Made by a program: the position numbers and the translations under genes. DNA of 64,000 nucleotides from a virus. The stretch lies in the IMG/VR virus record IMGVR_UViG_3300018080_005419, one strand, 5' to 3'. Positions 1-62,709 of the stretch are shown here, piece by piece (within the stretch, counting starts at the first letter, position 1; every line of letters begins with the position of its first letter). Under the pieces are notes generated by a model that was not told where the DNA came from, did no database searches, and saw only the letters and a list, made by a program, of their open reading frames with translations.

Positions 1-631
1 AATAATCTTCAAATCGAGTACATACTTTAGTCCCCTTTAAATCAATATGTACAGGTGATGGTTCTTCCGTATCCAAATGCTTTTCAAGAGTTCCATCAGT
101 TTTCCATTCATTTATCTCATACAGCTTATATATACCTTCAGAACCAATTAACTCTTTACTGCTAATTGATTCTGTATGCTTTAACTTTTTTATTTCTTCG
201 TTGACATTCTTGTTGTTTTCTACAATGTCTTTTGCAAGTGCTATTAAATCTTCTTCGTCTTTATCCTTTAACTTTTCTTTGAGCACTTTATATGTATTTT
301 CAAGCTTTCTTTTTTCTCTTTCTTTCGCAGGTAGCCTTTCTAGGAATACATCTTCTAATGCTGCCTTTATTTTTTCAATAGGTCTTTGTGGATCTAACTT
401 ATCTTTAATAAACTTAGAAATAACCCGCATAGCATCTTTAGGGTATTCTTTCTCAAACTCTAAAAACATATCTTTAAGTTTGGCAATAAGACTAGTATCA
501 GTTGTCTTTTTATTGATTTCCTTGAGAAGATACTTATCCCAAGATTCTGCTATCCCTGCAACAAGAATACGCTTACCTGTTAAATTAGATAAGTATTGAA
601 TTGCTTGTGTTGTATGAGAAAATTTAAGCAC
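1..631 (-). CDS. Partial gene (runs off window start): tagged protein of the K(W/V)C-motif paralogue family
   Basis: Not in the ORF track. Hand translation from GTG at 631 is open to position 1: MLKFSHTTQAIQYLSNLTGKRILVA...GSEGIYKLYEINEW...KGTKVCTRFEDY. Has the N-terminal tag and resembles the 38256 and 43642 proteins. Confidence 0.85.
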   Translation of the reverse strand, partial: MLKFSHTTQAIQYLSNLTGKRILVAGIAESWDKYLLKEINKKTTDTSLIAKLKDMFLEFEKEYPKDAMRVISKFIKDKLDPQRPIEKIKAALEDVFLERLPAKEREKRKLENTYKVLKEKLKDKDEEDLIALAKDIVENNKNVNEEIKKLKHTESISSKELIGSEGIYKLYEINEWKTDGTLEKHLDTEEPSPVHIDLKGTKVCTRFEDY

Positions 632-639
632 TTCCTAAA

Positions 640-1125
640 CTATCCTTCTTCAATTCCCGTTACCTTAGCTTTAATAGAAAACTCAACACCAGTAGTTGTT
701 TTAACATGAAAAGATATGTCATCATTCCTTAATTCAACTTCTACATCTTTAATCTCGCCAGGAAGCATATCCATTACTCCTCGGCTTTCTACATATTCCT
801 CAACAAAATCCTTCAAATTATCAGACGCAGCTATCTTTAACCTCTTACCTGTTAAATCTGCAAAAAATTTAAAAGCACTATCCTCAGAAGCAAAAGATAG
901 TTCCTGCTGACCTTTATATCTATTGCTAGTAAAATACTTATCAATTAAATTATGCCGATTCTTTTCTACCCATTCTAATGCTTCTTCTGCTCTAATTCTT
1001 TTCTGATCTGCATAATCCAAAGCAAAAGTCAAAAATGAATCGTCAAATATCTCTTTTGTGTCTAAACCATTTATCTCAGCCACTTTATTAATATAATTCA
1101 AATGTATCGTCGCCATTTTTCTCAA
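640..1125 (-). CDS. Hypothetical protein with internal 25-aa tag (probable start ATG 1116)
   Basis: ORF track; GGAGG RBS; contains GQQELSFASEDSAFKFFADLTGKRLKIA. Confidence 0.8.
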   Translation of the reverse strand: MRKMATIHLNYINKVAEINGLDTKEIFDDSFLTFALDYADQKRIRAEEALEWVEKNRHNLIDKYFTSNRYKGQQELSFASEDSAFKFFADLTGKRLKIAASDNLKDFVEEYVESRGVMDMLPGEIKDVEVELRNDDISFHVKTTTGVEFSIKAKVTGIEEG

Positions 1126-1157
1126 CCTCCAAAAATTCCTCTACATATAATGAGAAC

Positions 1158-1175
1158 AAAATATAAAGAAAATTT
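1158..1175 (-). promoter_or_regulatory. Putative late-promoter motif (ATTTTCTTTATATT on coding strand)
   Basis: About 40-60 nt upstream of the tagged gene; near-identical copies lie upstream of other minus-strand genes. Confidence 0.45.
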
Positions 1176-1369
1176 CACATAAATATATTGTCGAAAATGT
1201 TGTCTTAAAATGACTTATCTCTATGCAAAAACAAACCTGCAGAAAACTTGTAGCAATATCAAAATACATTGTATATAATAAGAAGGTCAAATTGTGTATA
1301 GAGTAGAAGGTTTATGGAGCTTTTGTAAACGTGGGGCAAATTATGGCTTGATATATGTAGGAGAGGAGT

Positions 1370-1561
1370 ATGAAGGCTAAAATATTAATAACAGACTCCA
1401 TTGGCCGATTCAAAGCAGGAGAAATTGGAACCGTGAAAGAAAACGACTTTGACAAATACGATTATTATATTGAGTTAGAAGATGGGATAATGAACGGAGA
1501 AACATTTAAAAGGAATTATTATTTTTATGAGAATGAAGTAGAAATAATAGAAAAGGAATAG
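1370..1561 (+). CDS. Hypothetical protein
   Basis: ORF with AGGAG RBS. Confidence 0.7.
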   Translation: MKAKILITDSIGRFKAGEIGTVKENDFDKYDYYIELEDGIMNGETFKRNYYFYENEVEIIEKE

Positions 1562-1631
1562 ATAGGAATGCAAAGGATTGAAAAGTTAATGTACAGGAGA
1601 GGCAATTTAATCTAACAAGGAGAAATAAGAA

Positions 1632-1955: not shown

Positions 1956-1970
1956 CAAGGAGAAAGAAAA

Positions 1971-8565: not shown

Positions 8566-8997
8566 ATGGACCTTAACAAAATAAAATTTTCATCAGGCAC
8601 ATATAAAAATCCTGTACACGAAGAAGATGGACAGTGGTATTTTTGGGATGAAACTTGGATGTATAGATATGGTCCTTTTAAAACAGAAATAGAAGCAAAA
8701 ACAGAATGTAGAAACTATGGAAATTATCTACATCAACAAGCTATAAAAGAAACCCTAACAAAAATGAAAATAAATAAATTAGAGCAAACATGTGGTGCTT
8801 GTCCGACTATATTTGAATGGTTTGATGATAAAGATGAAAGATATTATTTTCGTTTGCGTCATGGATATGCTAAAATAGTCAGAGATAAAGACAGTCATAT
8901 AATTGTCGAAGCTAAAATGCCAGGATTTGATGGAATTTGCAATTTTGACGATGCAGAAGAGTGGGCTAAAAATCAAGGAGTAATTTTTGAACTATGA
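8566..8997 (+). CDS. Hypothetical phage protein
   Basis: ORF in tightly packed operon. Confidence 0.7.
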   Translation: MDLNKIKFSSGTYKNPVHEEDGQWYFWDETWMYRYGPFKTEIEAKTECRNYGNYLHQQAIKETLTKMKINKLEQTCGACPTIFEWFDDKDERYYFRLRHGYAKIVRDKDSHIIVEAKMPGFDGICNFDDAEEWAKNQGVIFEL

Positions 8998-22912: not shown

Positions 22913-23410
22913 CTAATTAATAGCAATCTTAACTCTTTTGCCCATTAAATCTGATAAATATTGGAGAGCATCATCTTCTGAATTAAATACAAGTTCGTTT
23001 TCTTTAGCTTTTTCATTCATTCTTAAAATACCCATAGAAACATTATGATCTCCATCAGGAAAATATGCTAATTTAGAAGCATTTTTCTTCTTTTCTCGTT
23101 CTACAATTCTTCTTGCCCAATTAATTCCTACATCATCGCCCCAACCTAACCATGCCACATAGCCTCGATCTTTCCAGGGTTTATTTTTATATTTAGGATC
23201 AATTTTGGAGTTTGATTTATGCCTGTAGAAACGAGCCATTCTTTTGACAATATCCAGAGATAGAGGTTTTCCTTCTGCTAATTGTCTGGCTCTAGTCCAC
23301 CCCGTTTTTGTCATAGCTTTCACTTCGTCTGGGTGTTCTTCCTTCCATTTAAGCACTTTCTTGGCAGCTTCTTGCGCACCTTTAGGAGGGACATGTTTTT
23401 CTTTGCTCAT
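22913..23410 (-). CDS. Phage head-associated-type domain protein with C-terminal tag
   Basis: PPKGAQEAAKK..GWTRARQLAEG..KRMARF..GYVAWLGWGDD domain, recalled from phage structural regions; ends ELVFNSEDDALQYLSDLMGKRVKIAIN. Confidence 0.7.
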   Translation of the reverse strand: MSKEKHVPPKGAQEAAKKVLKWKEEHPDEVKAMTKTGWTRARQLAEGKPLSLDIVKRMARFYRHKSNSKIDPKYKNKPWKDRGYVAWLGWGDDVGINWARRIVEREKKKNASKLAYFPDGDHNVSMGILRMNEKAKENELVFNSEDDALQYLSDLMGKRVKIAIN

Positions 23411-23564: not shown

Positions 23565-23810
23565 ATGAGTAAGAAGCAAAAACAAAACAAGATCGTAAAA
23601 ATTGCCAACATTGGAGAGGCAGCTGGTCTTGTTTGGCATCACCTCAATGACAATGGCAAAACTTCAGTAGCTACATTAACAAGAGTGATCAACCTCCCTA
23701 GAAATACAATTGATCGTGCTCTTGGATGGTTGGACAGGGAAGGAAAGATTATTTGGGAAAGTAAGGGCAATTCTGATCTTGTTCAGCTTAGATCCGAAAA
23801 ATGCTACTAG
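23565..23810 (+). CDS. DUF2582-like winged helix-turn-helix protein
   Basis: IGEAAGLVWHHL...ALGWLDREGKI. Confidence 0.8.
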   Translation: MSKKQKQNKIVKIANIGEAAGLVWHHLNDNGKTSVATLTRVINLPRNTIDRALGWLDREGKIIWESKGNSDLVQLRSEKCY

Positions 23811-30085: not shown

Positions 30086-30283
30086 ATGGGAAACAACTAT
30101 GTCCATTCTATAAAGGCTACTGAGGATGTGATTTGTCCTCATTGTGGGTATAAAAATTATCCTGGTATTGATGGATTTGATGCTTATGATGATGGTGGAG
30201 TTTGGAAAGCTTATTGTTTGAAATGTGAAAAACCATTCCATTTTGAAGAAGTTAGATGCTTTATGTCATATATTAGAGATTAG
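30086..30283 (+). CDS. Small Zn-ribbon protein
   Basis: CPHCG and CLKC motifs. Confidence 0.7.
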   Translation: MGNNYVHSIKATEDVICPHCGYKNYPGIDGFDAYDDGGVWKAYCLKCEKPFHFEEVRCFMSYIRD

Positions 30284-33128: not shown

Positions 33129-33311
33129 CTATTTTTTATCTACTTTCTTTTTGCACTTAACACAGTATTTAGTCTGATCTAAGACCTTGGTTCCACAATC
33201 AGGACACGGAAAGGTCTTAGCAGCAACTTCGATTCTTTGTCCAGTAAGATCTGACAAATACTGAATTGCTTCTTCTTCGCTGGCAAAAATAAGTTCTTTT
33301 TCTTCTGACAT
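33129..33311 (-). CDS. Small tagged protein with Zn ribbon
   Basis: ELIFASEEEAIQYLSDLTGQRIEVAA followed by CPDC..CVKC. Confidence 0.8.
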   Translation of the reverse strand: MSEEKELIFASEEEAIQYLSDLTGQRIEVAAKTFPCPDCGTKVLDQTKYCVKCKKKVDKK

Positions 33312-33360: not shown

Positions 33361-33378
33361 CAAAATATAAAGAAAATT
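33361..33378 (-). promoter_or_regulatory. Putative late-promoter motif
   Basis: AATTTTCTTTATATTTTG on the coding strand, 50-67 nt upstream of 33311. Confidence 0.45.
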
Positions 33379-34071: not shown

Positions 34072-35226
34072 TTAAGCGATACTAGCTGTCCGAAAGGACA
34101 GTCTTACGGTATCTAGGCCAGCAGAAGATGCCCCTTCTGCATAAATATTAAAACTAGCGTTCCGATCTCTGTCTAATTCAGTTTTACAACTAGGGCATAT
34201 CCAACTTCTGTCTTTTAACGTTAATCCTTCATTCTTATACCCACATACATAGCATTGTTTAGTAGATGGAAAGAAGCGATTGATTTTATGCACTGTCTTA
34301 AGATATTCTTCGGCTTTAAAGCTCAAAATCTGCATAAACTGATAAAATCCTAAATCGCTTACTTTTCTTCCATATTGTTTTTGCAGCCATTTGATGTTTA
34401 AATCTTCGAAAAACATATAATCATAACTTCGAACTAAAGCTAAAGCTAGTTTAAAATGGAAATCTTTTCTTTTGTTAGTTATCTTTCTATGCATCCTAGC
34501 TAACTTCAATCTAGCTTTTTCTTTATTTCTACTTCCATCTTTCTTTTTAGACAAAGATCTGTTTAACTTCTTTATTCTTCTAATGTCCCTTTTAAAAAAC
34601 AAAGGGGATTTTATATCTTTGTAATCGCTAGATGTTAGAAAGGTTTTCAACCCAAAGTCAAATCCTGCGCTTTTACCCGTCATGAATTTGTCTTTTTCTG
34701 GGCTGTCTTCTAAGACTAACGATATACAAAGCCAAAGATCACCTAAACTATCTCTCTTTATCGTTACTGTTTTTACTTCTCCTTTCGTTTCTCTTGATTT
34801 AGAATACTTATAAATACTCTTCTTTATTTTGATTTTGTTTCCTTCCAGGAATTTATATCCTGCTTGTTTAAGCGTAAATGATTTGTATTTTTTAACCTTT
34901 TTAAACGAAGGAGGGCTACATTTTATTTTCTTTTTGTGCAGTTTAAAAAACAGCTTGTATGCTTTGTCTATACGTTCAGTTATATCTTGAACTGATTGAC
35001 TTGGAATAACCTTAAGATATTTAAATCTTTCTATATTGCTGTTTCTAAGTTTTTTAATATGCTTTTGCAGCTTGTTTTTATCAAGATATTTTCCGTAGAG
35101 TTTATAGTATTTTTTATGCAATGCTATGCAATGATTATACAAAATTCCTGTACAATCAATTGTCTGCATAAGAAAACAATTTCTCTTATGCTTATACAAT
35201 TTATATTTATACGTTCTTCTCTGCAT
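34072..35226 (-). CDS. tnpB: TnpB RNA-guided endonuclease
   Basis: HTH N-terminus, GFDFGLK, FFEDLNI, CYVCG/CPSC Zn finger, DRDRNASFNI; the three RuvC acidic residues are present. Confidence 0.96.
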   Translation of the reverse strand: MQRRTYKYKLYKHKRNCFLMQTIDCTGILYNHCIALHKKYYKLYGKYLDKNKLQKHIKKLRNSNIERFKYLKVIPSQSVQDITERIDKAYKLFFKLHKKKIKCSPPSFKKVKKYKSFTLKQAGYKFLEGNKIKIKKSIYKYSKSRETKGEVKTVTIKRDSLGDLWLCISLVLEDSPEKDKFMTGKSAGFDFGLKTFLTSSDYKDIKSPLFFKRDIRRIKKLNRSLSKKKDGSRNKEKARLKLARMHRKITNKRKDFHFKLALALVRSYDYMFFEDLNIKWLQKQYGRKVSDLGFYQFMQILSFKAEEYLKTVHKINRFFPSTKQCYVCGYKNEGLTLKDRSWICPSCKTELDRDRNASFNIYAEGASSAGLDTVRLSFRTASIA

Positions 35227-35229
35227 AAA

Positions 35230-35628
35230 TTATTTGTTTTTCTGATCGTCTATATACTTCTGAATTGTTTCTTCAGAAATATGTCCAACGGACTCACAAT
35301 AATAACTTCTTGTCCAAAGACAAGGAAGTCTGCTTTTTAAAGAATTAAACTCTTTTCTTAAATTTCTAGAAGAATATCCCTTTAATTGTTGAACTATAAA
35401 ATGAGGACTGTCAACAGGAGTAGCTTTTACAAAGAGATGAACATGTTCAGGCATAACTTCCATAGAAAGAATTTGAACACTTAGCTCTTTGGCTTTTTCT
35501 TTTAATAATTGTTTCAATCTTTTTTCAATATCATCAACAAAAACAGGTCTTCTATATTTAGAACACCAAATAAAATGATAGCCTATGTTGTAAACACAAG
35601 TTTTGCTAGTTGTCCATCTCTTTTCCAT
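35230..35628 (-). CDS. tnpA: IS200/IS605 Y1 (HUH) transposase TnpA
   Basis: YHFIWCSKYRR, PEHVHLF (HUH), LWTRSYY, IQKYIDDQ. Confidence 0.96.
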   Translation of the reverse strand: MEKRWTTSKTCVYNIGYHFIWCSKYRRPVFVDDIEKRLKQLLKEKAKELSVQILSMEVMPEHVHLFVKATPVDSPHFIVQQLKGYSSRNLRKEFNSLKSRLPCLWTRSYYCESVGHISEETIQKYIDDQKNK

Positions 35629-35786: not shown

Positions 35787-36254
35787 ATGCCATATTTTTA
35801 TTTCCCAAGAGAAGAAAACTTAAGACCTCTAAGCAATATAGAAGTCATAACAATGCAAGCTTGTTTAGGCAAGTTAGACGATAAGAAATTACCTTGGTCA
35901 TACGAGATAGAAACTTATAAATTTAGATATTTTGAAGATAAGGGTATGACACTCGACAACGGAATTATGGGATATACGAGATTTTTCAGCAAAGATATTC
36001 TATTATCGCCAAATGTTGTTAAGGGACTGCTATGGACAGACAATCAAGGAATTCCAAATAATGAACAATCTATAAGCATAGTTGTCCATGAATTAACTCA
36101 TAGAAATCAAATGAAATGGTTAGGTGGGTTGCTGTGGCCGTTTTTAAATATGTTTGGAGTTGCTGATCTAACAATAGAAAAATGGGCACGAGAAAACGAA
36201 CAGTGTGCCCTTAATGATCTTGCTAAAATATATAGAGAAGAAAGAGAAGGTTAA
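35787..36254 (+). CDS. Putative HExxH metallopeptidase-like protein
   Basis: IVVHELTHRNQ ... IEKWARE. Confidence 0.6.
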   Translation: MPYFYFPREENLRPLSNIEVITMQACLGKLDDKKLPWSYEIETYKFRYFEDKGMTLDNGIMGYTRFFSKDILLSPNVVKGLLWTDNQGIPNNEQSISIVVHELTHRNQMKWLGGLLWPFLNMFGVADLTIEKWARENEQCALNDLAKIYREEREG

Positions 36255-36871
36255 GAAATAGGCAAATCAAGAGCTTTCCAGCCAGCTACCGGAATTCCTT
36301 CAACAGGGCTAATTCCCATCCCATATTTTAAAGTAACCACATTATATCCTAAAAGCCTTAAAAGAGTCATAGTTTGGCTTGCTGTATGTCCAACATAGCA
36401 AATTAATACAATGGTTTTATCTTTAGGTAATTTTTCTAGGTTTTCAGGCTTAAATAAATCTAACCAAAATATATTAATTGTTCCTTCAATATGTCCTTTT
36501 TGAAAATCATCTGGTTTTCGAATATCCAATAAGAAAAGATCATCGGTTTGGTCGTTATCTATTTTCTTTTTAAGATCTTCAGGAGTAATATAATTCCAAT
36601 TTTTGTCTACTTTGGATATGTATTGAGATATCTTATCTTCCATTTTATTAGTAGATTGAGCTTGATCTGTGGCTAGCTCATAAAAAACAGACTCAAGATC
36701 ATGCACATCATATCCATTTTCTTCTGCCCATTTATGAACTACTGGATCTTTTGGATTTGGATTATCTTGGAGAAATTTTTTAACCTCTTCTTTTGAAGGA
36801 GATTCCTTAGCAATTTTCAGTTTGCTAAGTTTTTCGGCAATTTTTGCAATTCTGTTTATATTTTTGTTCAT
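36251..36871 (-). CDS. Rhodanese-domain protein with N-terminal RIAKIA motif
   Basis: LLDIRKPDDFQKGHIEGTINI, active-loop CYVGHTA, LLGYNV. Confidence 0.85.
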   Translation of the reverse strand: MNKNINRIAKIAEKLSKLKIAKESPSKEEVKKFLQDNPNPKDPVVHKWAEENGYDVHDLESVFYELATDQAQSTNKMEDKISQYISKVDKNWNYITPEDLKKKIDNDQTDDLFLLDIRKPDDFQKGHIEGTINIFWLDLFKPENLEKLPKDKTIVLICYVGHTASQTMTLLRLLGYNVVTLKYGMGISPVEGIPVAGWKALDLPIS

Positions 36872-37257: not shown

Positions 37258-37725
37258 TCAATCCTTTTTTGGTCTGACAGCAATCGATATGTGAAATTCG
37301 TGATTGCCCTTCATCAGCGGAGTTAAACCGTATTTCTCCCGTAACTTCTCTAATTGTGGGCTTTTACATTGAATAAACCACACCTTTTCCATTTCGTCCC
37401 AACCTTCTGGATCACAAGACTCAACAGAAGAAATAGCATATTCAAATTCTTGCCCAACTTCTTCAATTGGACCTACTTTTTCTACTTCCTCATCCGTCAT
37501 TACTGAAATGTGAGGATCGTAGTCTGGTGGTTTTTCCATGTCTTCTTCGTAAATCGTTTCATATATATTATTTACAAAATCTTTAGGGACAGTTAAAATT
37601 GCATAACTTCCCTTTTTGTTTTGCACTTTTAATTTGCCCTTCATAGGAACTGCAGGATATTCAGTTACAGTATTTCCTGCAAGAACCATATTAGCTATTC
37701 GAATTATTCTTCTAAAATCGGACAT
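37258..37725 (-). CDS. 2H phosphoesterase (LigT/Acb1-like fold) with N-terminal RIIRIA motif
   Basis: Two HxS motifs: YDPHISV and EFHISIA; 155 aa. Confidence 0.78.
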   Translation of the reverse strand: MSDFRRIIRIANMVLAGNTVTEYPAVPMKGKLKVQNKKGSYAILTVPKDFVNNIYETIYEEDMEKPPDYDPHISVMTDEEVEKVGPIEEVGQEFEYAISSVESCDPEGWDEMEKVWFIQCKSPQLEKLREKYGLTPLMKGNHEFHISIAVRPKKD

Positions 37726-37727: not shown

Positions 37728-38144
37728 TTAGCCTTTAAGAAGTTCATTATATTTGGCTTCTGCTTGTGCCATACTATCAAAGTAATAAGCTTCTTTTGGT
37801 TTCCATTTATCATCTTTGAGAACATAAACTTCTGTCTCAAACATATCGTCTTCTCTTTCGATTACAACCTTTCTTGTTTCTGAAGTTTGAGTCTCTTTGA
37901 CGTATTTCTCTTCACCCTCGCTAGATTCTTCCTCTTCTTTGCTGGATTCTTCTTCCTTTGTCTCCTCTTCCTCTTTTTCTTCAGAAGTTTTAGAAAAAGG
38001 ACACTCATCTGTCTCAGAGTTTGGTCCTGTACCATCTGGAATACCTGGGCCCAACTTTGAACCAGCAATATAAACCTTTTGTTCTAACAAATCAGCTAAG
38101 TATTGTAGAGCTTCTTTTTCGGTGGCAAATCGTAGCTCATTCAT
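37728..38144 (-). CDS. Tagged acidic hypothetical protein
   Basis: Starts MNELRFATEKEALQYLADLLEQKVYIAG. Confidence 0.8.
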   Translation of the reverse strand: MNELRFATEKEALQYLADLLEQKVYIAGSKLGPGIPDGTGPNSETDECPFSKTSEEKEEEETKEEESSKEEEESSEGEEKYVKETQTSETRKVVIEREDDMFETEVYVLKDDKWKPKEAYYFDSMAQAEAKYNELLKG

Positions 38145-38195: not shown

Positions 38196-38214
38196 AAATA
38201 TATAGAGAAAATTT
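38196..38214 (-). promoter_or_regulatory. Putative late-promoter motif
   Basis: AAATTTTCTCTATATATTT on the coding strand. Confidence 0.4.
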
Positions 38215-38255: not shown

Positions 38256-39647
38256 TTATTTAATAATTATTCGTTTGCCTGTTAGATTGGATAAATATTG
38301 TAGTGCATCGTTAATAGAAGCCATTTCAAACATTTTTTGTTGCCCTTTGGACTCGGCTAATTCTCTAAAAGGATCAGGATATTTTTCTTTAAGTCTTTGT
38401 TTGTCAGGATGTTTGCTAAGTTCATCTATGTTTATTTTTTGATTTGTCATTAATTTGAATTCTAATGGATCTTTAACTAAATCTTCTGCATAATCAGGAC
38501 CATATTCATTAAAAATATATTGTAAAGTTGGAATATCTTCTTTAAATCCTTCAGTCAAAAGTTTAACAATTGGTTTCATTTCACTTTCTGTCATTTTTGT
38601 ATTGCCAGCATTATTAAATTCAATACCCTGTCCTGTTCCTGGAATTGGTATTTGCATATATTCACCATCATCATCATAATAAATTTGTTCCAGATTTTCT
38701 TTTATTTCGCTTTCGTCAGGCTCATATTCTTCTATTAGTTCATCTTTAACCTCATCTACTTCTTCAGGATGATCTTCTATCCATTCCTCAAAAGTATATT
38801 CTTCCTCTTCTCCTTCTTCTAGTTCTGCTTTTTCACTCTCTCTGTATTCTAAATAATCATCATATCTGTCTTGTAATTTTTGATCAATATCATATTCATC
38901 AGGTTCGTAATGTTCTTTCAACCTCTCAATAACTCCATCTTCATAATCATATCCATAGTTATTTAACCATTCATCAAAATCTATTTTTTCTGTTTCTAGC
39001 ATTCCTTCTACATTCAAAAGTGCATATAATTTATTCCCTTTAGTAATAAGATAAAATGGAGGATCATATCTACGAAACCAATCTTCATCTCGAACACACC
39101 ATTTACCAGCTTGAATCGTATCAAAAGTCTCATCATAATCATCTATTCTAAACAATCTATATTTACCGTTAGATGATAATAACTTTTCATCCATATGACT
39201 AAATAAATCTTCTAGTCTGGGACGTTTATTTTTAAGATTTTCCATAAAATTAGATAGTCCCCTCAAGCCTCTTTCTATAATGTGTTTCATTTTATTTTCG
39301 TTCATTACTTCTGGAACTTGTTTTTGCTTCATAGACATGTATTCTTTTAAAATGGGCTTAGCTTCATCAAGTTCTTCTGGTTTAACTTTATCCTTTTTAA
39401 TCCATTCAATAAGCTGTTTTATAAATTTACCGTCAATTCTTGTATTTTCATCTAACTTTGCAGGTGGGTTTTTAACAGTGGGGTCAGCTTGTATAATTCT
39501 TAAAAATAAGTCGTCAGAATATTTGTCTTCTAACATCTTTTGGCCAAGTTCCATTGTGAATTTCTTGGCAATAATAATTCTACTATCAGTTAATTCTGCT
39601 AGATATTGTATAGCATCAAATTCAGAAGAAAATCTTAATCTTGACAT
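38256..39647 (-). CDS. Doubly tagged KWC-motif protein with acidic insert
   Basis: Tag at both termini; GKWCVRD motif; D/E-rich middle; paralogue of 43642. Confidence 0.8.
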   Translation of the reverse strand: MSRLRFSSEFDAIQYLAELTDSRIIIAKKFTMELGQKMLEDKYSDDLFLRIIQADPTVKNPPAKLDENTRIDGKFIKQLIEWIKKDKVKPEELDEAKPILKEYMSMKQKQVPEVMNENKMKHIIERGLRGLSNFMENLKNKRPRLEDLFSHMDEKLLSSNGKYRLFRIDDYDETFDTIQAGKWCVRDEDWFRRYDPPFYLITKGNKLYALLNVEGMLETEKIDFDEWLNNYGYDYEDGVIERLKEHYEPDEYDIDQKLQDRYDDYLEYRESEKAELEEGEEEEYTFEEWIEDHPEEVDEVKDELIEEYEPDESEIKENLEQIYYDDDGEYMQIPIPGTGQGIEFNNAGNTKMTESEMKPIVKLLTEGFKEDIPTLQYIFNEYGPDYAEDLVKDPLEFKLMTNQKINIDELSKHPDKQRLKEKYPDPFRELAESKGQQKMFEMASINDALQYLSNLTGKRIIIK

Positions 39648-39780: not shown

Positions 39781-41112
39781 ATGACTATAACAAAACAAGA
39801 ACGAAGAAAATTTAAAAAAGAAATGGAGAGAAAAGAAGAGGAAATCAAAGCCTCTCTTGCCAGGAAAATCAAGCCTAAAAAATCCAATAAGGATGAAGAA
39901 ATTAAAGAGGTAGTCTATAATAAGTTTTGCGAACCCACTCGTAAATTTTGTTTAAATCATCCTCTATATTGCACTTACAGAAACATAAAATACGATCAAG
40001 ATAAAAAACTGTGGTATAAATATCAAAATCAAGCTCTTGAGAAACTACTTCATACCTGTTTTGATTTAGAATTAATGTATGATGAAAAATGCTGCAAATG
40101 TCTCCCAAAAATAGCACTTTATTGTCAAGACTGGATGCGAAACTTAGAAGACTGGAAACCCAAAACTCATAATAGACATCGACAAATTGCACATCTTTTG
40201 CGTTGGCTTTTTGTAAAATATGACATGCCACTTTTTATGGACACTGCATGGTACGAACAAAAGCAAAATAAATATATCTCTTGGTATATCGATATTGGAA
40301 AAGGAGGAAGTGTATATAAAACATTAAAGCCTTATAATATGACAAGAAAAATGGCTCACCTGTTTGTCCAGTCTCCTAAAGATCTTTCCATTACTGAAGC
40401 TTTGCGATGGACTCAAACTCTAGCATATGGAGGCGATCAAAAAATTGCTCATGCTATTGTCAAAAGTGAACTGCCCATATTGGATCTGAAATTCCCATTT
40501 TGGATGGAGCTAATTCATTTGTTTGCTAGAAGCCCAATGATGGATGCGGCACAAATTGGACCTGTTGTGGATTATGTCAGATTTCAAAAAGCACAAAATG
40601 ATGAATATACTTTAAAAGGGAGAACAATCAATTCTCTCATCAAGCACACAGAAGATTGGCATCAAGGATTAGTTAGAGAAAGAAGGGTCAAGGGGAAATG
40701 TTGGGAGGGCATATGTCTGCCTGATTGGAAACACATTGAAGGCAAAAGTCATCCTAATGAAGATGAAAATGCACTTAACAAAAAACAAACTGTATATAAA
40801 ATTGTACAGATTTTGAACGGAAAAGAATTAGCAGAAGAAGGTAGATCTATGTGCCATTGTGTTTATTCTTATAGCTATTCGTGCGAAAGAGGACAAAGCT
40901 CAATTTGGTCCTTAAGAAAAAATGCATGGGAAGAAGCACGGCAAGAAAGAGTAACTAGAAGACTTTTAACAATCGAAGTTAGAAATCGTGATAATACTAT
41001 ATCCCAAGTAAGAGGAAAATATAACAGAACACCTAATGGTAAAGAGATTTTTTTGTTGAAAAAATGGGCTGAGGAAGCTAGACTTAGAATTAATGCTTTT
41101 GGAGTTAGATGA
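39781..41112 (+). CDS. PcfJ-like domain protein
   Basis: ELAEEGRSMCHCVYSY..SSIWSLR..TIEVR..QVRGKYN. Confidence 0.8.
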   Translation: MTITKQERRKFKKEMERKEEEIKASLARKIKPKKSNKDEEIKEVVYNKFCEPTRKFCLNHPLYCTYRNIKYDQDKKLWYKYQNQALEKLLHTCFDLELMYDEKCCKCLPKIALYCQDWMRNLEDWKPKTHNRHRQIAHLLRWLFVKYDMPLFMDTAWYEQKQNKYISWYIDIGKGGSVYKTLKPYNMTRKMAHLFVQSPKDLSITEALRWTQTLAYGGDQKIAHAIVKSELPILDLKFPFWMELIHLFARSPMMDAAQIGPVVDYVRFQKAQNDEYTLKGRTINSLIKHTEDWHQGLVRERRVKGKCWEGICLPDWKHIEGKSHPNEDENALNKKQTVYKIVQILNGKELAEEGRSMCHCVYSYSYSCERGQSSIWSLRKNAWEEARQERVTRRLLTIEVRNRDNTISQVRGKYNRTPNGKEIFLLKKWAEEARLRINAFGVR

Positions 41113-42388: not shown

Positions 42389-43228
42389 ATGCCTAGTCGT
42401 ATATATAGAATAGCCAAAAGACTTATTGTTTCGGCAGCATTAACCGGCATTACAGATCCACGCCAATTATTTGAAGAACTGTCAGGAAGCGATATAGTAT
42501 TCTTTGATGTAGAAACAACAGGTTTAGATCAACACGAAAAACAAATAATCGAAATTGCAGCTATTCGTGTAGATGGTAGTACATTAAGAGAAAAAGACAA
42601 GTTACATAAAAAGATAAAGCTCACCCAAAAAACTCTAAAACAAATTCAAGAACAAAAAGAAAATCCCTCAACTCTCAAAAAAGGAGAATGGGGCGTAGAA
42701 AAAGTATTAGAATATACCAGATATAATAAGCTGAATCTACCCGAAGAAGAAGAAATAAAAGTCCTAGAGGAATTTAAGGAGTTCTGTGAAAAAAGCAATG
42801 CATATTTAGTGGCACATAATGCTAAATTTGATTTAAAAATGATAGGAACAAGAATCGGTAAAATTAAGAACCTCAAAGTCTATGATACAATGATGTTTGC
42901 CCGATTTTTCTTCATTCCTTCTTTAACTGCGCTATCAAAAGCAGGAGACGAAGAAGCCACCGATCTTCTTGAGAAAATGAAAACGTCAAAAGGAAAAGTG
43001 AGTTCTGGGCTTGTTTATTTAGGAAAAGGGTTAGGCATAGATGTTTCACAAGCCCATAGTGCTTTAGCCGATGTACAAACTACTATCAAGGTTTTTAAGG
43101 GAATTGTCGATCATTTTGAAAATAAGGCAGAGAGTTTAGAATCAGAAGAATATGAGAAGGGGAGACAAAAAGCAATTATGAAAGAAAGGTTCTACAAACA
43201 ATTAGATAAGAAGAAAAAGAAGCGTTAG
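42389..43228 (+). CDS. DEDDh 3-prime to 5-prime exonuclease (DnaQ/PolC-epsilon-like) with N-terminal RIYRIA motif
   Basis: FFDVETTGL, IIEIAA, VAHNAKFD, DT, AHSALADV. Confidence 0.9.
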   Translation: MPSRIYRIAKRLIVSAALTGITDPRQLFEELSGSDIVFFDVETTGLDQHEKQIIEIAAIRVDGSTLREKDKLHKKIKLTQKTLKQIQEQKENPSTLKKGEWGVEKVLEYTRYNKLNLPEEEEIKVLEEFKEFCEKSNAYLVAHNAKFDLKMIGTRIGKIKNLKVYDTMMFARFFFIPSLTALSKAGDEEATDLLEKMKTSKGKVSSGLVYLGKGLGIDVSQAHSALADVQTTIKVFKGIVDHFENKAESLESEEYEKGRQKAIMKERFYKQLDKKKKKR

Positions 43229-43641: not shown

Positions 43642-45267
43642 TTATTCCACAGGCACAGATTCAATCCCACCTTCCTTAACCATCTCATAGAACTTCCTTT
43701 TTCCTGCCAATCCTGAAAATAGCTTTCTATTAATATCGATAGGATGCATATAGGCCGTTCCTAATTTGTCTAAAGCATGCATAAATTCATCTTCATTTTG
43801 AGCTTCTTCTACAAGTTCAGCAAGCTTTTTCAGAGATGCTTCTAGTTTGCTTGTTTTAGGAGCTTTTGGATTTGATGGTTCTAAAAAACTTTGAGAACTA
43901 GGAGCACTAACATCTCTTTCCATGATTTTTTGCATAGCTTTAGAGACATCGATTGTAGGTGTACTTATTTTAATACGTTTTCCTGTTAAATCAGCTAAAT
44001 ATTGAATTGCTTTATCTACACTGGAAAATAGAACTTGTTGACCGTAATGCTCTTTTAGCTCTTTGAAATATTTAGGATAAGATTTTTCAAGATATTTGAG
44101 TCTTTTCTTGCTTAACTTTCCTAATGTGCCCTTTTGAAGCATTGTATTATGATATATAGTTCTTTCAATGTCGTCGCCTAAAAGAAATTGAATATCCTTC
44201 CAGGGAGTGTTGTTTGCTACTCTTTCAACATTAATATAAATGCTCCAAGATCCATCATAATCTTGTTCCCATTCCCAATATAAGCTGTTATCTTCAGCTA
44301 CTTCTTCAAAAAGCTCGAAAAGATCTTTTGCGCCTATATCTCCTATATCTAATTCTTCATCATACCCTTCTTGCATATCTTCTACTTTATCTTCAAACTT
44401 ATTCTCAAGCGCTTTAACATAATCATCCTGTGCCCAACTATCCCATGCATCTCTCTCATAATCTCTTTGTTGTTCATAAGGAGGCTCATTACTTCTATAA
44501 TTTTCATATGCATTAGATCTTTCAAATGCTCTCTCTAAATCTAACTTTTCTATTAAAGGCATTAGTTCGTCTATTTCATCGGCTTCTATAGGATCATTTG
44601 TGACATTATTAAACATTTCATCACTAGGACTAAATAGAGCATAATAGCTTCTATTTGGTTTTGTGAACAGCCATAGGGGTTTATAGCCTTCATAATTATC
44701 TTGTTCATTTACACACCATTTAGTTTGATGTGCGAATAATGGTTGTCCCTCTTCTTCCCAACTTCCATCAATTAAATAAGCGTGATATCCATTTAAAACC
44801 AAGTCGGGAGTTTTAAGTATTTGTTCTCTCTTATCGTTTGCCAATTCTTCTTCTGTGTCTTCAATAAAGCTAATGAGATCTGCACCCTTTTGGAAATCCT
44901 TTAACTTTTTAGATGTTTTGCCTTTTCCTCTTAGATTGTTTAGCTTTCTTATTGCATCTTTAATTTCTTCTTTTCTATAAACATTAGACATATATGGAGG
45001 ATTATCAAAATACCACTCTAAAAGAATATGAATAGATTTAACACTCTTCTTTAAATTGCCATCAAATTTTGGATCTATACGAGCAATTTCAACGATTTCT
45101 TGTTGTACTCTATGATCTTCCCAATTTTTAGATATACTCACGCGCTTTCTAAATCTTTCTACTAATTCAGGCATTAGGTCTTCAAGAGATTTAGCAATAA
45201 GAATCCGGCTACCTGTTAAATTAGCTAGATATTGAAAAGCCAAATTAGCATTGGAAAATTTTAGCAT
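43642..45267 (-). CDS. Doubly tagged KWC-motif protein with acidic region
   Basis: Tag at the N-terminus and near residue 415; TKWCVNE motif; paralogue of 38256. Confidence 0.8.
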   Translation of the reverse strand: MLKFSNANLAFQYLANLTGSRILIAKSLEDLMPELVERFRKRVSISKNWEDHRVQQEIVEIARIDPKFDGNLKKSVKSIHILLEWYFDNPPYMSNVYRKEEIKDAIRKLNNLRGKGKTSKKLKDFQKGADLISFIEDTEEELANDKREQILKTPDLVLNGYHAYLIDGSWEEEGQPLFAHQTKWCVNEQDNYEGYKPLWLFTKPNRSYYALFSPSDEMFNNVTNDPIEADEIDELMPLIEKLDLERAFERSNAYENYRSNEPPYEQQRDYERDAWDSWAQDDYVKALENKFEDKVEDMQEGYDEELDIGDIGAKDLFELFEEVAEDNSLYWEWEQDYDGSWSIYINVERVANNTPWKDIQFLLGDDIERTIYHNTMLQKGTLGKLSKKRLKYLEKSYPKYFKELKEHYGQQVLFSSVDKAIQYLADLTGKRIKISTPTIDVSKAMQKIMERDVSAPSSQSFLEPSNPKAPKTSKLEASLKKLAELVEEAQNEDEFMHALDKLGTAYMHPIDINRKLFSGLAGKRKFYEMVKEGGIESVPVE

Positions 45268-45725
45268 TATTCTTCCTCGTCTGGATCTGGAGCTAAATTT
45301 TTTCCAGCTTTAATTGAATCGAAAATAATCTTACCTTCTTCAGGAGACTCACCTTTAGGATGGAAGCTAAGGGTTTTCTCTTCTCCACGTTCAAAAAATG
45401 CTCTGTCGTGAATTGGGTCTACTGTACTGTACCAAACGCCTTCATGAAATTGACTGCTTGATGGTTCTGCTGCACCTTCTTTCAACATATAATCAATCAT
45501 CTCATATAAAGAATCAAATTCCATATCTTTATGCTCAAATCCAGTTTCGGCATAATCTCCTGCTCTTGCTGATTCTTCAGTTACAATCTGATATGTGACA
45601 TCAAGTTTAAAATCTTGGAAAAGAGTCTGCTGTCCATCGTATGCAGCAATAATAACTTTCTTACCCGTCATATCAGAAAGGTGTTGAATTGCTTCTTGTT
45701 CACTGCTAAAATTGAGTTCACGCAT
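45267..45725 (-). CDS. Tagged hypothetical protein
   Basis: MRELNFSSEQEAIQHLSDMTGKKVIIAAYDGQQTLF. Confidence 0.8.
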   Translation of the reverse strand: MRELNFSSEQEAIQHLSDMTGKKVIIAAYDGQQTLFQDFKLDVTYQIVTEESARAGDYAETGFEHKDMEFDSLYEMIDYMLKEGAAEPSSSQFHEGVWYSTVDPIHDRAFFERGEEKTLSFHPKGESPEEGKIIFDSIKAGKNLAPDPDEEE

Positions 45726-45863
45726 TGTTTAATCTCCTTATTTGCCTTCTACACAATATACTCCAAATATTCAAAAATATTAAAATACATATAACTACTT
45801 AGAAATAAAACAATTAAATATTTTTAAAAAGATATGAAATTTTTGGAGGGAGTTTTGTTTATA

Positions 45864-48854: not shown

Positions 48855-49526
48855 TTAGAACAATGACTCTTGTTTATCACTAATATCGGGCGCTTCAACA
48901 ACCCAAAATGTGACATCAAGATCGTTATTCCAAGCTAAATTACTACGTCTATTTCCCGAGAATCCATAATAGGTTTTCGGGAATTTTATTAAGATAGGTG
49001 CTTCTAACTCTATTTTTATTTTTTCATTTAATCTATCTCTAAGTTGTGTATATCCTTCTCTATATGTTGGATCTTGTATTTCTTCCTGGAAATCTTTAGG
49101 ATCCTTTGTAATGTTCATAGCAGGATTGACACCAAATTTACTTATTTTTTGGAGCTTACCGTTACTTAAGAAATCAATTAATTCTTTATCTGTTTTAAAA
49201 GAATAACCCATTTTAGCAAAGAAACGCCTAGTAGGATCGTTTTCAAAATACTCACCTGCCTCATCCGCAAAATCAGGCTTTATCCACTTGATTTCTTTTT
49301 GTGGAGGATTGAGTTGATTTGAGACTTCTTTTGTTGAAACTCCATATTCTTTAGCGGCTTGTGCTATTGCTACTCCATACGGTTTACCTTTTTTTTTAAC
49401 TAAAAATCTAACTCTATCTGCTGCCTTTTCTATTTCTCTTGAGGCAGCAACAATAATACGCTTACCTGTCAAATCAGATAAGTATTGGATAGCTTCTGAT
49501 GTACTAGAAAATTTAATTTGCTGCAT
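48855..49526 (-). CDS. Tagged ParB/Srx-like protein (true start ATG 49526)
   Basis: MQQIKFSSTSEAIQYLSDLTGKRIIVAA; LEAPILI..YYGFSGNRR; ends KQESLF. Confidence 0.75.
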   Translation of the reverse strand: MQQIKFSSTSEAIQYLSDLTGKRIIVAASREIEKAADRVRFLVKKKGKPYGVAIAQAAKEYGVSTKEVSNQLNPPQKEIKWIKPDFADEAGEYFENDPTRRFFAKMGYSFKTDKELIDFLSNGKLQKISKFGVNPAMNITKDPKDFQEEIQDPTYREGYTQLRDRLNEKIKIELEAPILIKFPKTYYGFSGNRRSNLAWNNDLDVTFWVVEAPDISDKQESLF

Positions 49527-52401: not shown

Positions 52402-52737
52402 TTATTCGTGCTCAATTCCAGCTTCTTCTTCCATTTTCTTTAATCTGTCATAATAATCTTTAATTTCCCAGAGATGATCTAATGAAATTTCCTTAGCAAT
52501 ATTGCTATCGTTTGTGTGTTCCATTTCAACCTTAATGCCCATAGTTAATTGTTTTTCAATCTCTTCAACGGAGACACCATGCTTATCTGCAATGTCTTGA
52601 ACTGTCTTACTTTCTGCAAAACCTCCTGGCAATAAGTCAGATGGTTCGTCAGCGGCAATCTTAATAGTCTTGCCTGTTAGATCTGCAAGAAATTGAATTG
52701 CTTCATCAAAACTTCTGAATGTTTTATGATTTGTCAC
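52402..52737 (-). CDS. Tagged DUF5661-like protein
   Basis: N-terminal tag plus GIKVEMEHT..AKEISLDHLWEIKDYYDRL. Confidence 0.8.
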   Translation of the reverse strand: MTNHKTFRSFDEAIQFLADLTGKTIKIAADEPSDLLPGGFAESKTVQDIADKHGVSVEEIEKQLTMGIKVEMEHTNDSNIAKEISLDHLWEIKDYYDRLKKMEEEAGIEHE

Positions 52738-52775: not shown

Positions 52776-52791
52776 ATATTTAAGAAAATCT
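52776..52791 (-). promoter_or_regulatory. Putative late-promoter motif
   Basis: AGATTTTCTTAAATAT on the coding strand. Confidence 0.4.
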
Positions 52792-52847
52792 ATTCAAAAA
52801 TTATAAATTTTCTTAGATATAATAGTTAATATAGAAAGAAAGATAAA

Positions 52848-55449: not shown

Positions 55450-55452
55450 AGA

Positions 55453-55506: not shown

Positions 55507-55944
55507 CTATTCGTCTATTAGAATTTTCTTACCTGTAAAATCAGCAAGATATTGAATAGCTTCTTCTTCAGAGGAGAACTTTAATTCGCCTTCCTTAACT
55601 TGAGTTTCGATTTCTCCAGCTAATATATATTGTTCAAATACATCTGCCATAACTTCTGCTGTTGCTTCCATTTCTTCTTCGGTAAGATCAATTTCTTTTT
55701 CAGCAAGGATTTTAACCAATTCTTTTGCAAGCTTAATGGCAACCATTTTAAAATCAGTCATTGCTACTTCACTGCCCTTCCATTTTTTAACTTGTTCCTT
55801 TACAAGATCGCCAATAGCATCCATGACAGGTTTTCTTTTATCACCCAATTTTAAGTCTGCATTTGTAGCAGCAATTTTAATCAATTTAGCAATACGGAGA
55901 CTATTAATTTGGTGATCCGATGCAATTTTAATTCTGAGGGACAT
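55507..55944 (-). CDS. Protein with N-terminal RIKIA/LRIA motifs and C-terminal tag
   Basis: MSLRIKIASDHQINSLRIAKLIKIAA ... GELKFSSEEEAIQYLADFTGKKILIDE. Confidence 0.8.
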   Translation of the reverse strand: MSLRIKIASDHQINSLRIAKLIKIAATNADLKLGDKRKPVMDAIGDLVKEQVKKWKGSEVAMTDFKMVAIKLAKELVKILAEKEIDLTEEEMEATAEVMADVFEQYILAGEIETQVKEGELKFSSEEEAIQYLADFTGKKILIDE

Positions 55945-60391: not shown

Positions 60392-60430
60392 TTGGTTGAT
60401 AAAGACTATTGACGAAAATTTGGAGGTAAA

Positions 60431-60892
60431 ATGGAATATTATATAGTTTCGAGCTTTGATCCGGAATGCTATAATCCAACTATTTTAAAAGGCCAAAAGG
60501 TAGAAAATTGGGAAGAATATTGCAATTCTCTCATGCCAGAAGCAATCAAACTAGCAATTAAGAAATATAGCAAAGGGAACAAAGATTTTGATGGAGCAAT
60601 AAACCATCTTTCTTTGAGAATAACAGAAGAAAGAATGTCAGAAGCTATGATAGAAGTATTGAAAAAGAAGGGATATGAATTAGTTAAATTTCAAGAAAAA
60701 TCGTTTGGCTGGAGGGGGGATTTTTTCGATATTAATGAAATTGAATTGCACAATCTCAGGGCAGAACTCGAAAACAACGAATCATATATAGAAAGAAAAA
60801 ATGATTATGAGCTTAAGAAAGATACAATCGATTATCTTCAAGAGAAAAATGCCAAAATTAAAACTAAAATAAAAGAACTAGAAGAAAATTAA
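60431..60892 (+). CDS. Hypothetical protein
   Basis: GGAGG RBS. Confidence 0.75.
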   Translation: MEYYIVSSFDPECYNPTILKGQKVENWEEYCNSLMPEAIKLAIKKYSKGNKDFDGAINHLSLRITEERMSEAMIEVLKKKGYELVKFQEKSFGWRGDFFDINEIELHNLRAELENNESYIERKNDYELKKDTIDYLQEKNAKIKTKIKELEEN

Positions 60893-61215
60893 AATTTCTT
60901 TGATTCTTCTCTAAATGCCCTACTATCTTTAAGCCAGCCTTGAATTGCTTGGTGATAATCCTTCATGCTAGATTCTTGTAACTTAACAATATCATCCGGC
61001 ACACCCACTTCTAATGTTTCAAATTCATCGCCTTTTTGGATAGCTACAGTACTTCCTGGTTTGATTCTTACTTTTATTTTTTTGCCACTCTCCATTGTGA
61101 CATTATAGAGATAGCCTTCTTCTGTATCGCTTGAATGGCTTACACTTTTAACTAAGTTTTCTGCAATAAGCATTTGAGCGATGACAATTTTTCTACGCAT
61201 GATGTTATTCTCCAA
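60889..61215 (-). CDS. Hypothetical protein
   Basis: ORF in minus-strand operon; N-terminal RRKIVIA. Confidence 0.7.
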   Translation of the reverse strand: MENNIMRRKIVIAQMLIAENLVKSVSHSSDTEEGYLYNVTMESGKKIKVRIKPGSTVAIQKGDEFETLEVGVPDDIVKLQESSMKDYHQAIQGWLKDSRAFREESKKF

Positions 61216-61218
61216 ATT

Positions 61219-61404
61219 TTATTCTGGTGGATTTTGCCAACGTGGTTCCAAAATGCCTCCGCCAATATCAACTACTGTTAGAATTTGTCCTTCATTACCA
61301 GGATGAAGGCGAATCCAATCTTTACCGTCATAATAAAGAAGGTCGCCAATTAAACCTGCATCTGGTCCATCATAATCGCCAACTTCGGTTTTTTCGGAAG
61401 CCAT
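61219..61404 (-). CDS. Small protein resembling a tail-fibre-type beta repeat
   Basis: GDLLYYDGKDWIRLHPGNEGQILTV..PRWQ. Confidence 0.6.
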   Translation of the reverse strand: MASEKTEVGDYDGPDAGLIGDLLYYDGKDWIRLHPGNEGQILTVVDIGGGILEPRWQNPPE

Positions 61405-61580
61405 TAGTTAGCTCCTCTATCGCTTTTTAAAGACTTGTTAGCTCCTCTTGTGCGATCTACCATATGTTCAAAGCCTTGGCTAATAATAGCAATTTTAACA
61501 GGTTTTCCTAAAGTATCACACAAATATTGAATAGCATCCTCTTCAGATTCAAAAATTAGAGAGTCTTCTGTTTCTTGCAT
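61404..61580 (-). CDS. 58-aa tagged peptide
   Basis: Not in the track: MQETEDSLIFESEEDAIQYLCDTLGKPVKIAIISQGFEHMVDRTRGANKSLKSDRGAN; AAGGAG upstream. Confidence 0.75.
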   Translation of the reverse strand: MQETEDSLIFESEEDAIQYLCDTLGKPVKIAIISQGFEHMVDRTRGANKSLKSDRGAN

Positions 61581-61737
61581 TTTCTATTTAACTCCTTGTA
61601 AGTACAATAGTTTATAGTTTTTAACGTATTATTTTCGACAATACATATTATAATAATTTCGCTTCTTATAATAAGGTCAACATATTAAATAAAATTCAAT
61701 AATTTTTCCTAAGAATATAGAGAGGAGTTTCAAAATC

Positions 61738-62709
61738 ATGCTACAATTTAAAACAGCCAATCAAGCGCTTCAAACACTTGCCGATCTAAAACAGTGTCGC
61801 ATCAAAATTGCAGACATTGATATTCCAAAAAGAAAGTTGGGGAATACAGGATTGGAGGTGGGCATATTTTCTTTAGGTGGACAAGGAGCATTAGAGCATC
61901 AAAGAGACAAAGAAGAAATGGCAGAGATTATCACCAGAGCATATGAGCTTGGGGTAAATTATTTCGACACTTCTCCAATTTATGGTCCTTCTGAAGATTA
62001 TTATGGACATGCAATTCCCAGCTTTAGAAATGATATTATTTTAGCAACAAAGAGCGATAAAAGAGATGGGGATGGAGCTTTAAAAGACATAGAAAAATCC
62101 TTAGAAAGACTGAAAACGGATTGGATAGATGTATGGCAAATTCATCATGTAGATAATATGGAAGAAGTAGAACAAATATTTGGACCTGGAGGGGCATTAG
62201 AGGCCTTTAAACAAATGAAGGATGAAGGTGTTGTTAAAAATATAGGAATTACTGGGCATGAAGATCCTGAAGTATTAGTGGAAATGCTTAACAGATTCCC
62301 ATTCGATACCGTTCTTTGTGTAGCCAATGCTGCTGATGTAAATGTAGATCCTTCTTTTGAATCAACGCTATATCCTGTGGCAAATGAAATGAATGTTGGA
62401 ATTATAGGGATGAAGGTATTTGCTCAGGGTTACATTTTTCATCCAGATGGTATTAAAACAACATGGGAGCCACTTTATTATGCAATGTCGCAACCAATTT
62501 CTACTGTTATTGTTGGATGCGATAGTGTGGCCCAATTAGAAGAGAATGTTGCACTAGCTAAGGGTTTCTATAAATTAAGCCCTGAACAATTAGAAGAAAT
62601 TCAAAATCAAACTAAATCATATACAAAGAGAGGAGCTTTTTTTAGGAGTGAGTTCGGAGGGTATAGTTCTCAGGAAAAGCTCAAAAAATTAGTTGTTTTT
62701 GAAAAATAA
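61738..62709 (+). CDS. Aldo/keto reductase with N-terminal tag
   Basis: RKLGNTG, GVNYFDTSPIYG, ILATK, IEKSLERLKTDWID..QIH, IGITGH, GMKVF; preceded by MLQFKTANQALQTLADLKQCRIKIA. Confidence 0.92.
   Translation: MLQFKTANQALQTLADLKQCRIKIADIDIPKRKLGNTGLEVGIFSLGGQGALEHQRDKEEMAEIITRAYELGVNYFDTSPIYGPSEDYYGHAIPSFRNDIILATKSDKRDGDGALKDIEKSLERLKTDWIDVWQIHHVDNMEEVEQIFGPGGALEAFKQMKDEGVVKNIGITGHEDPEVLVEMLNRFPFDTVLCVANAADVNVDPSFESTLYPVANEMNVGIIGMKVFAQGYIFHPDGIKTTWEPLYYAMSQPISTVIVGCDSVAQLEENVALAKGFYKLSPEQLEEIQNQTKSYTKRGAFFRSEFGGYSSQEKLKKLVVFEK

Follow-up and report, generated by a model that had tools for sequence, protein, structure and literature searches.

We analysed a window of 64,000 nucleotides, the first 64 kb of a 280,011-bp metagenomic contig (IMG/VR virus record IMGVR_UViG_3300018080_005419), in which a 25-residue peptide, hereafter called the tag, occurs 15 times on 13 open reading frames (ORFs). 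All six frames of the window were scanned with a regular expression and then with a hidden Markov model (HMM) built from seven seed copies. The seed HMM recovered 14 copies, at E-values from 1e-16 to 4e-5. The 15th, on a plus-strand aldo/keto reductase (AKR), is degenerate and scored only E 0.2; no other window ORF scored better. The consensus of the tag is L-x-F-[AS]-S-x-x-E-A-[IL]-Q-[YH]-L-[AS]-D-[LI]-T-G-K-[RK]-I-K-I-A. Ten copies are N-terminal, three are C-terminal and two are internal, with the positions given in Table 1. An earlier sequence-only reading of this DNA had described the same set of copies and carriers, and the scan reproduced it.

The distribution between strands is strongly uneven. 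Tags were found on 12 of the 37 minus-strand ORFs of the window against 1 of the 74 on the plus strand (Fisher p = 5e-6), in line with the strand bias that had been reported. Nucleotide identity between pairs of copies averages 54%; it is higher at codon position 2 (64%) and lower at position 3 (44%). Where two copies have the same residue, they encode it by the same codon in only 50% of cases. Judged by this codon usage, conservation is at the level of the peptide, which agrees with the selection on the peptide proposed earlier. A repeat at the DNA level, or a recombination cassette, was rejected because codon position 3 is the most divergent and identical residues often have different codons.

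Carriers of the tag in the window

Gene 2-631 is the start of a 656-amino-acid (aa) ankyrin-repeat protein cut by the window edge; its full-length form, P0114, has ankyrin Pfam domains. Two carriers fall into the families that the sequence-only reading had assigned to them. These are the AKR (61738-62709), in which the Aldo_ket_red domain begins at residue 42 (E 6e-36), and the protein at 52402-52737, which matches DUF5661 (E 7e-17). P0177, an AKR from another contig, also matches the tag profile (E 6e-4). The supposed zinc-ribbon peptide (33129-33311) does carry the tag, and its zinc-ribbon Pfam matches are weak, all of them under the curated cut-offs. A ParB-like carrier had been claimed as well; this assignment was not confirmed, the sole ParB-like match being an untagged plus-strand gene (30225-31319, phrog_1033, E 6e-4). 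The 165-aa carrier at 22913-23410 matches only PHROGs of unknown function (phrog_2859).

Three tagged proteins, those at 38256-39647 and 43642-45267 (both minus strand) and P0114, have a common central region (K-W-C-V...Y-x-P...[FL]-[IL]-T-K...Y-A-L) and are therefore paralogues. In several unrelated carriers (37728-38144 on the minus strand, P0005, P0151 and P0076) the tag is followed by a stretch of the form G-P-G-I-P-D-G-T-G-P...C, which we take to resemble the DUF5320 motif.

Table 1. Positions of the tag copies and promoter-like words in the 64,000-nucleotide window.
Feature	Position	Strand	Context	Score or match
Tag copy 1	554..628	-	N-terminal, gene 2-631	HMM E 1e-16
Tag copy 2	826..900	-	Internal, residues 81-105 of 161-aa ORF 640-1125	HMM E 9e-7
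Tag copy 3	22919..22993	-	C-terminal, 165-aa ORF 22913-23410	HMM E 2e-9
Tag copy 4	33219..33293	-	N-terminal, 60-aa zinc-ribbon peptide (weak Pfam matches) 33129-33311	HMM E 3e-16
Tag copy 5	38061..38135	-	N-terminal, 138-aa acidic protein 37728-38144	HMM E 4e-5
Tag copy 6	39564..39638	-	N-terminal, 463-aa ORF 38256-39647	HMM E 1e-9
Tag copy 7	38259..38330	-	C-terminal, 463-aa ORF 38256-39647; ends ...IIIK-stop, without Ala	HMM E 2e-14
Tag copy 8	45190..45264	-	N-terminal, 541-aa ORF 43642-45267	HMM E 1e-14
Tag copy 9	43960..44034	-	Internal, residues 412-436 of 541-aa ORF 43642-45267 (426-450 of the open frame)	HMM E 6e-15
Tag copy 10	45642..45716	-	N-terminal, 152-aa ORF 45267-45725	HMM E 6e-11
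Tag copy 11	49443..49517	-	N-terminal, 223-aa ORF 48855-49526	HMM E 1e-16
Tag copy 12	52651..52722	-	N-terminal, 111-aa DUF5661 protein 52402-52737	HMM E 2e-9
Tag copy 13	55510..55584	-	C-terminal, 145-aa ORF 55507-55944; ends ...ILIDE-stop	HMM E 2e-16
Tag copy 14	61485..61559	-	N-terminal, 58-aa ORF 61404-61580	HMM E 2e-5
Tag copy 15	61741..61815	+	Degenerate, N-terminal, 323-aa aldo/keto reductase 61738-62709	Seed HMM E 0.2
Promoter-like word TTTCTTTATATTT	1159..1171	-	34 nucleotides upstream of tagged 640-1125	Exact match to TTTCTYTATATWT
Promoter-like word	33363..33375	-	52 nucleotides upstream of tagged 33129-33311	Match to TTTCTYTATATWT
Promoter-like word TTTCTCTATATAT	38198..38210	-	54 nucleotides upstream of tagged 37728-38144	Match to TTTCTYTATATWT
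Second promoter-like word ATTTTTGAATA	45768..45778	-	43 nucleotides upstream of tagged operon 45725 -> 43642	
Second promoter-like word ATTTTTGAATA	52791..52801	-	54 nucleotides upstream of tagged DUF5661 gene	

Spread and novelty of the tag

Among 1.84 billion protein representatives, a 34-column profile built on all 15 copies matched 453 clusters at E<=1e-3, of which 71 reached E<=1e-10, all of them metagenomic; on these scores, recurrence of the tag is far beyond chance. On 177 proteins, 248 copies were placed (131 N-terminal, 87 internal and 30 C-terminal). An N-terminal tag begins 1-5 residues past the Met, and at C-terminal copies the chain stops 1-2 residues past the last strand. Two or more copies are present in 58 of the best 148 carriers scored, and both tandem tags (P0031) and a family with the order N-tag, coiled coil, C-tag were seen. 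Recognisable carrier domains include ankyrin repeats, DUF3175, DUF4116, rubrerythrin/EncFtn-like/ferritin (EncFtn, encapsulated ferritin), DUF5661, aldo/keto reductase, NUDIX, rhodanese, P-loop kinase, the C-terminal domain of RNA polymerase alpha and LPD25. Other phages have three or four tags within 17-21 kb of non-structural DNA. As the unrelated carriers and the hundreds of protein clusters indicate, the tag is portable.

No Pfam family spans the tag in the 13 window carriers or in 172 others. A search of PHROGs gave scattered matches only, all at E >= 0.004, and the best match in a sequence search of the PDB had E 0.025. The possibility that the tag is a known stand-alone domain, which would have spoken against the sequence-only reading, was rejected for lack of a significant Pfam, PHROG, PDB sequence or fold match. 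Scans of IMG/VR with the tag alignment and with the 541-aa carrier yielded no confirmed loci, and tblastn of one tag against cultured or deposited relatives yielded no match. The tag profile also found no match in phage G, Tunturi_5 or LR745208.1, a weak negative since the sensitivity of that search was not established.

The source genome belongs to the phage-G-like lineage of giant phages, judging by its capsid protein, which shares 38% identity with gp27 of Bacillus phage G, 46% with that of Tunturiibacter phage Tunturi_5 and 63% with that of an uncultured 485-kb phage. This one genome contains at least 18 tag copies on at least 15 proteins, a lower bound that covers the window and a second locus of the 280-kb contig, L009 (record positions 235545-256777), which was found via P0010, a tagged protein outside the window.

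Predicted fold

Structure was predicted with AlphaFold2 for P0048, a 97-residue protein consisting of a tag, a Pro/Gln-rich linker and a second tag, using an alignment of 50 sequences. Both tags were predicted as strand(2-5)-helix(8-19)-strand(22-25), with a predicted local distance difference test (pLDDT) score of about 93, and the 45-residue linker is floppy (pLDDT 51-61). The whole model has a predicted template modelling score (pTM) of 0.54 with only 52 of 97 residues ordered, and the two tags are therefore held in a fixed mutual arrangement in the model. Structural alignments of 44-55 residues at 2-3 Å cover both tags, consistent with this arrangement. The model suggests that tags can pair with each other. 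Searches with the P0048 model found no known fold (Foldseek E >= 3.4, VIA-align Z <= 3.8). A single-sequence prediction for the 152-aa carrier was uninformative (pLDDT 43).

The terminal Ala and a candidate protease site

The last residue of the tag is Ala in 121 of 131 N-terminal copies (92%) and in 66 of 87 internal copies, against 7 of 30 C-terminal copies (23%), where Lys, Glu or Ser replace it. The share at C-terminal copies is significantly lower (Fisher p = 3e-14 against N-terminal and 5e-7 against internal copies). Ala is hence retained only in copies that are followed by more protein, which is the pattern expected of a P1 residue at a processing site.

Compared with shuffled sequences, head-operon proteins from six related giant phages (loci L009, L005, L011, L012, L007 and L008) are enriched 2-4 times in the motif [KR]-x-A-[SA]; L009 has 18 occurrences where 4.8 are expected. 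The motif is positionally conserved at the C-terminal end of the scaffold as K-[VIT]-A-S, and the capsid protein conserves G-R-x-[RK]-[IL]-A-[AT]-S where its variable N-terminus joins the invariant body. From its enrichment and placement, [KR]-x-A-[SA] is a candidate site for the maturation protease. Data on cleavage sites are absent from the multi-omics paper on phage G.

A short leader, R-I-x-[RK]-I-A, which resembles the last tag strand K-R-I-K-I-A, opens four untagged proteins (36251-36871 and 37258-37725 on the minus strand, 42389-43228 and 23565-23810 on the plus strand). It is also found at the N-terminus of the minus-strand protein 55507-55944, whose tag is C-terminal. One of the bearers is an RNase T-type exonuclease. 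This leader may be a minimal processing or targeting leader.

Tagged genes in head operons

Tagged genes are also found beside head genes. The order in L009 is a 443-aa head protein, P0010 (410 aa, with two tags and a coiled coil), a 164-aa protein with one tag, the head maturation protease, two acidic scaffold-like proteins, a 169-aa protein and the HK97-type capsid protein. The L009 protease gene (702 aa) is interrupted by an intein and is 73-76% identical to the protease of the related phage L005, which itself matches phrog_18299 (E 4e-13) and has nearby a capsid gene matching phrog_2522 (E 3e-54). In L005, the slot directly upstream of the protease is filled by a 111-aa C-terminally tagged protein and a 379-aa EncFtn-like protein with two tags. 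The first tag of the latter starts at residue 96, right behind the ferritin-like core, and encapsulated ferritins bear their encapsulin localisation peptide in just this place (PMC5012862).

P0010 ends in 52 residues that match the tail of a conserved protein from the L012 head operon (E 7e-15), and the body of that 411-aa protein matches the 443-aa gene of L009 (E 7e-141). One L012 gene (L012:1433-2668) thus corresponds to two genes in this genome (L009:8658-11233). These matches suggest an insertion of about 350 codons that brought in the tags.

Two further features of these operons were noted. The intein of the protease gene (L009:11758-13866) contains a homing-endonuclease domain and is inserted after ...VWYC; L012 has the same arrangement and the gene is intact in L005 and L011. 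The capsid family is very conserved, and its members in one subclade (L009:16804-17775; alignment A3) have a Gln/Ala-rich N-terminal extension of about 37 residues that is absent from the 285-286-aa forms. This extension was considered as a marker of tag-bearing phages and rejected, since L011 and L012 have it and lack tags in their head loci.

Promoter-like words

The word TTTCTYTATATWT has exactly three matches in the window against 0.12 expected, each 34-54 nucleotides upstream of a tagged gene (Table 1). In L009 there is one match (8588-8600) against 0.03 expected, placed 58 nucleotides ahead of the gene that opens the head operon; a copy with one mismatch occupies the orthologous position in L005. 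A second word, ATTTTTGAATA, has only two window matches, both 43-54 nucleotides upstream of tagged genes, and one match each in L009 and L005, 50-53 nucleotides upstream of the scaffold-like gene that follows the protease. Neither exact word was found upstream of any untagged gene or anywhere else in the window. Five tagged transcription units have these words. When upstream regions were scanned with a 19-nucleotide weight matrix, five of the six best scores belonged to tagged genes.

A possible head-loading tag and its alternatives

The reading that we favour, with a probability of about one half, is that the tag is a portable, autonomously folding prohead-loading signal with a protease site after its Ala, used in a clade of phage-G-like giant phages. 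A portable sorting signal, probably for capsid packaging with cleavage, had already been proposed in the sequence-only reading. Portability stood up to the searches, and the other two parts have gained indirect support. For the capsid link this is because tagged genes adjoin the maturation protease in two phages and have promoter-like words in common with the head operon; for cleavage it is because copies keep the terminal Ala only if more protein follows, and because head proteins are enriched in [KR]-x-A-[SA].

Tagged proteins would, on this proposal, be made together with head proteins. The tag would dock cargo into the core of the assembling prohead by pairing with tags of head-operon proteins, such as the two-tag coiled-coil P0010, or alternatively by attaching to some conserved component of the core or shell. 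Cleavage by the head maturation protease would follow, directly after the final Ala of ...K/R-I/V-x-I/V-A, so that N-terminally tagged cargo would be freed inside the head, C-terminally tagged cargo would remain tethered and internally tagged proteins would be split. From the head, the cargo would enter the host along with the DNA. More tentatively, the tag might be a self-pairing 'zip code' that works at either protein end to drive co-assembly with the prohead, the head protease freeing the N-terminally tagged proteins, in a capsid that acts as a DNA-carrying encapsulin with encapsulated ferritin among its cargo. The tag would in that case list all of the injected proteins (ankyrins, reductases, NUDIX, kinases). 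We regard this combined proposal as possible but somewhat doubtful.

Several observations weigh against loading into the head. The majority of tagged genes have non-structural neighbours, and enzymes of ordinary appearance (AKR, NUDIX, rhodanese, kinase) are among the carriers. There is no tagged gene in the head loci L011 and L012, which have the same capsid subtype, so the tagged genes of head operons are accessory insertions. Only about 31% of N-terminal copies have Ser or Ala at P1', just after the tag Ala, and the end of the tag therefore fits the head-protein motif only partly; about two thirds of copies have K or R three residues ahead of the putative cut. No site matching the motif occurs in the capsid protein of phage G, for which PDB entry 6WKK gives a chain of nearly full length. 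The tag HMM gave only negative scores on 120 capsid proteins and did not match the capsid N-terminus; an origin of the tag from the capsid N-terminus, or mimicry of it, was rejected on these scores. The contact between the two tags in the model may come from a default tendency of AlphaFold2 to pack homologous repeats, and the promoter-like words would be late or head promoters by their position alone.

The predicted packing of two tags also suits docking to a shared hub, which the sequence-only reading had offered as its alternative. The tag would then be a generic self-pairing module for dimerisation or docking with no link to the capsid, forming oligomers or a cytoplasmic hub or condensate (a replication or takeover factory) in which two-tag coiled-coil proteins serve as cross-linkers. 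The high share of carriers with more than one copy, including the tandem P0031 and the N-tag/coiled coil/C-tag family, argues for such a role, as do the acidic N-half and basic C-half, which make the tag self-complementary, and the preponderance of enzymes and repeat proteins among carriers. However, it leaves unexplained why Ala is retained only in continuing chains, why tagged genes and the head operon have promoter-like words in common, and why tagged genes were inserted directly upstream of the head protease in two phages. We consider it unlikely as a full account, and pairing of this kind can equally be the docking step within the head-loading model.

The preference of the tag for chain termini, where degrons and import signals are also found, and the conservation of the exposed helix residues Q14, Y/H15 and D18, which implies one common partner, would fit an address for another phage compartment or host machine (a nucleus-like shell, a membrane site, a chaperone or a protease adaptor/degron). 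Phage G, a relative, encodes ClpXP (PMC12484599), which counts in favour of this reading. Degrons and import signals are usually unstructured, however, whereas the tag is confidently predicted to fold, and the head-operon position and the words common with the head operon favour the head. No compartment or adaptor gene was found beside the tagged window genes, although no systematic search was made. Such an address seems improbable. Still less credit, and very little in all, goes to a small nucleic-acid- or ligand-binding mini-domain without a sorting role. The basic GKR-I-K-I-A end and weak structural echoes of SAP and LEM-like helices and of secretin N0 strand-helix-strand units point that way, but every structural match is below Z 4, there is no Pfam or PDB sequence match, the net charge of the tag is near neutral, and neither the terminus preference nor the position-dependent Ala would be expected.

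Comparison with known packaging systems

If the tag does load heads, its closest counterpart in function would be the capsid-targeting sequence (CTS) of phage T4, which unites targeting and processing residues in one propeptide and directs proteins into the prohead core (PMC9026906). Like the CTS of IPI-III and Alt, which is removed by the prohead protease gp21, the tag is short, portable and borne by otherwise unrelated, non-essential proteins, and the genes are scattered outside the head operon. Unlike the CTS, an N-terminal propeptide of roughly 10 residues, the tag is 25 residues long with a predicted strand-helix-strand fold, occurs also at C-termini (30/248), internally (87/248) and in several copies per protein, and has no sequence similarity to it. 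The putative cut of the tag is after Ala, and that of T4 is after Glu in L/I-x-E. Both targeting and cleavage are proven for T4 and inferred for the tag.

Encapsulin cargo-loading peptides, such as that of EncFtn, are likewise terminal peptides for loading diverse enzymes into an HK97-fold shell, which is the role proposed for the tag. In related phages, EncFtn-like proteins have the tag in the same post-ferritin-core position as the EncFtn localisation peptide (PMC5012862). An HK97-fold shell gene lies near the tagged cargo genes for five tag copies in the L005 and L009 head operons, which is not so for the 15 window copies. Encapsulin cargo binds the inner surface of its shell through a short, unstructured motif of the GSL type. 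The tag is longer, is predicted to be folded and has no GSL motif, and the shell in question is a true phage capsid, which has a protease and a scaffold and packages DNA.

Encapsulation peptides of bacterial microcompartments resemble the tag in lying at N-termini, at C-termini or between domains of unrelated enzymes, in having an amphipathic helix and in a tendency to self-associate, which for the tag is predicted. They are, however, single amphipathic helices in which only the pattern is conserved, whereas nearly every residue of the tag is; no microcompartment shell genes were seen here. In jumbo phages of the phiKZ/SPN3US type, many head-internal proteins are processed by the prohead protease at a short consensus site (PMC10052503, PMC7411985), as is proposed for the tag. 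Those phages have a common cleavage motif (A-x-E type) and no common folded tag, and their capsids are of another lineage.

To find the proteins that a phage injects usually takes a cultured phage and proteomics of its virions. A tag that loads heads would reveal, from sequence alone, which proteins are injected across an entire clade of giant phages that are uncultured. It would also serve as a compact and transferable tag for packaging, usable at either protein end for loading capsids with enzymes, and would link phage head assembly to encapsulin cargo loading via a common cargo type, the EncFtn-like ferritin. Were the tag merely a docking module, it would still be an undescribed, very widespread and highly conserved 25-residue unit of protein interaction.

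Neighbouring genes

Two other genes stand among the tagged genes of the window. A PcfJ-like gene (39781-41112, plus strand) lies between two of the three tagged paralogues. A TnpB-type gene (34072-35628, minus strand), with OrfB_IS605 and Cas12f-like TNB domains, has a 132-aa ORF upstream, and in L007 a TnpB gene is also found near the capsid gene.

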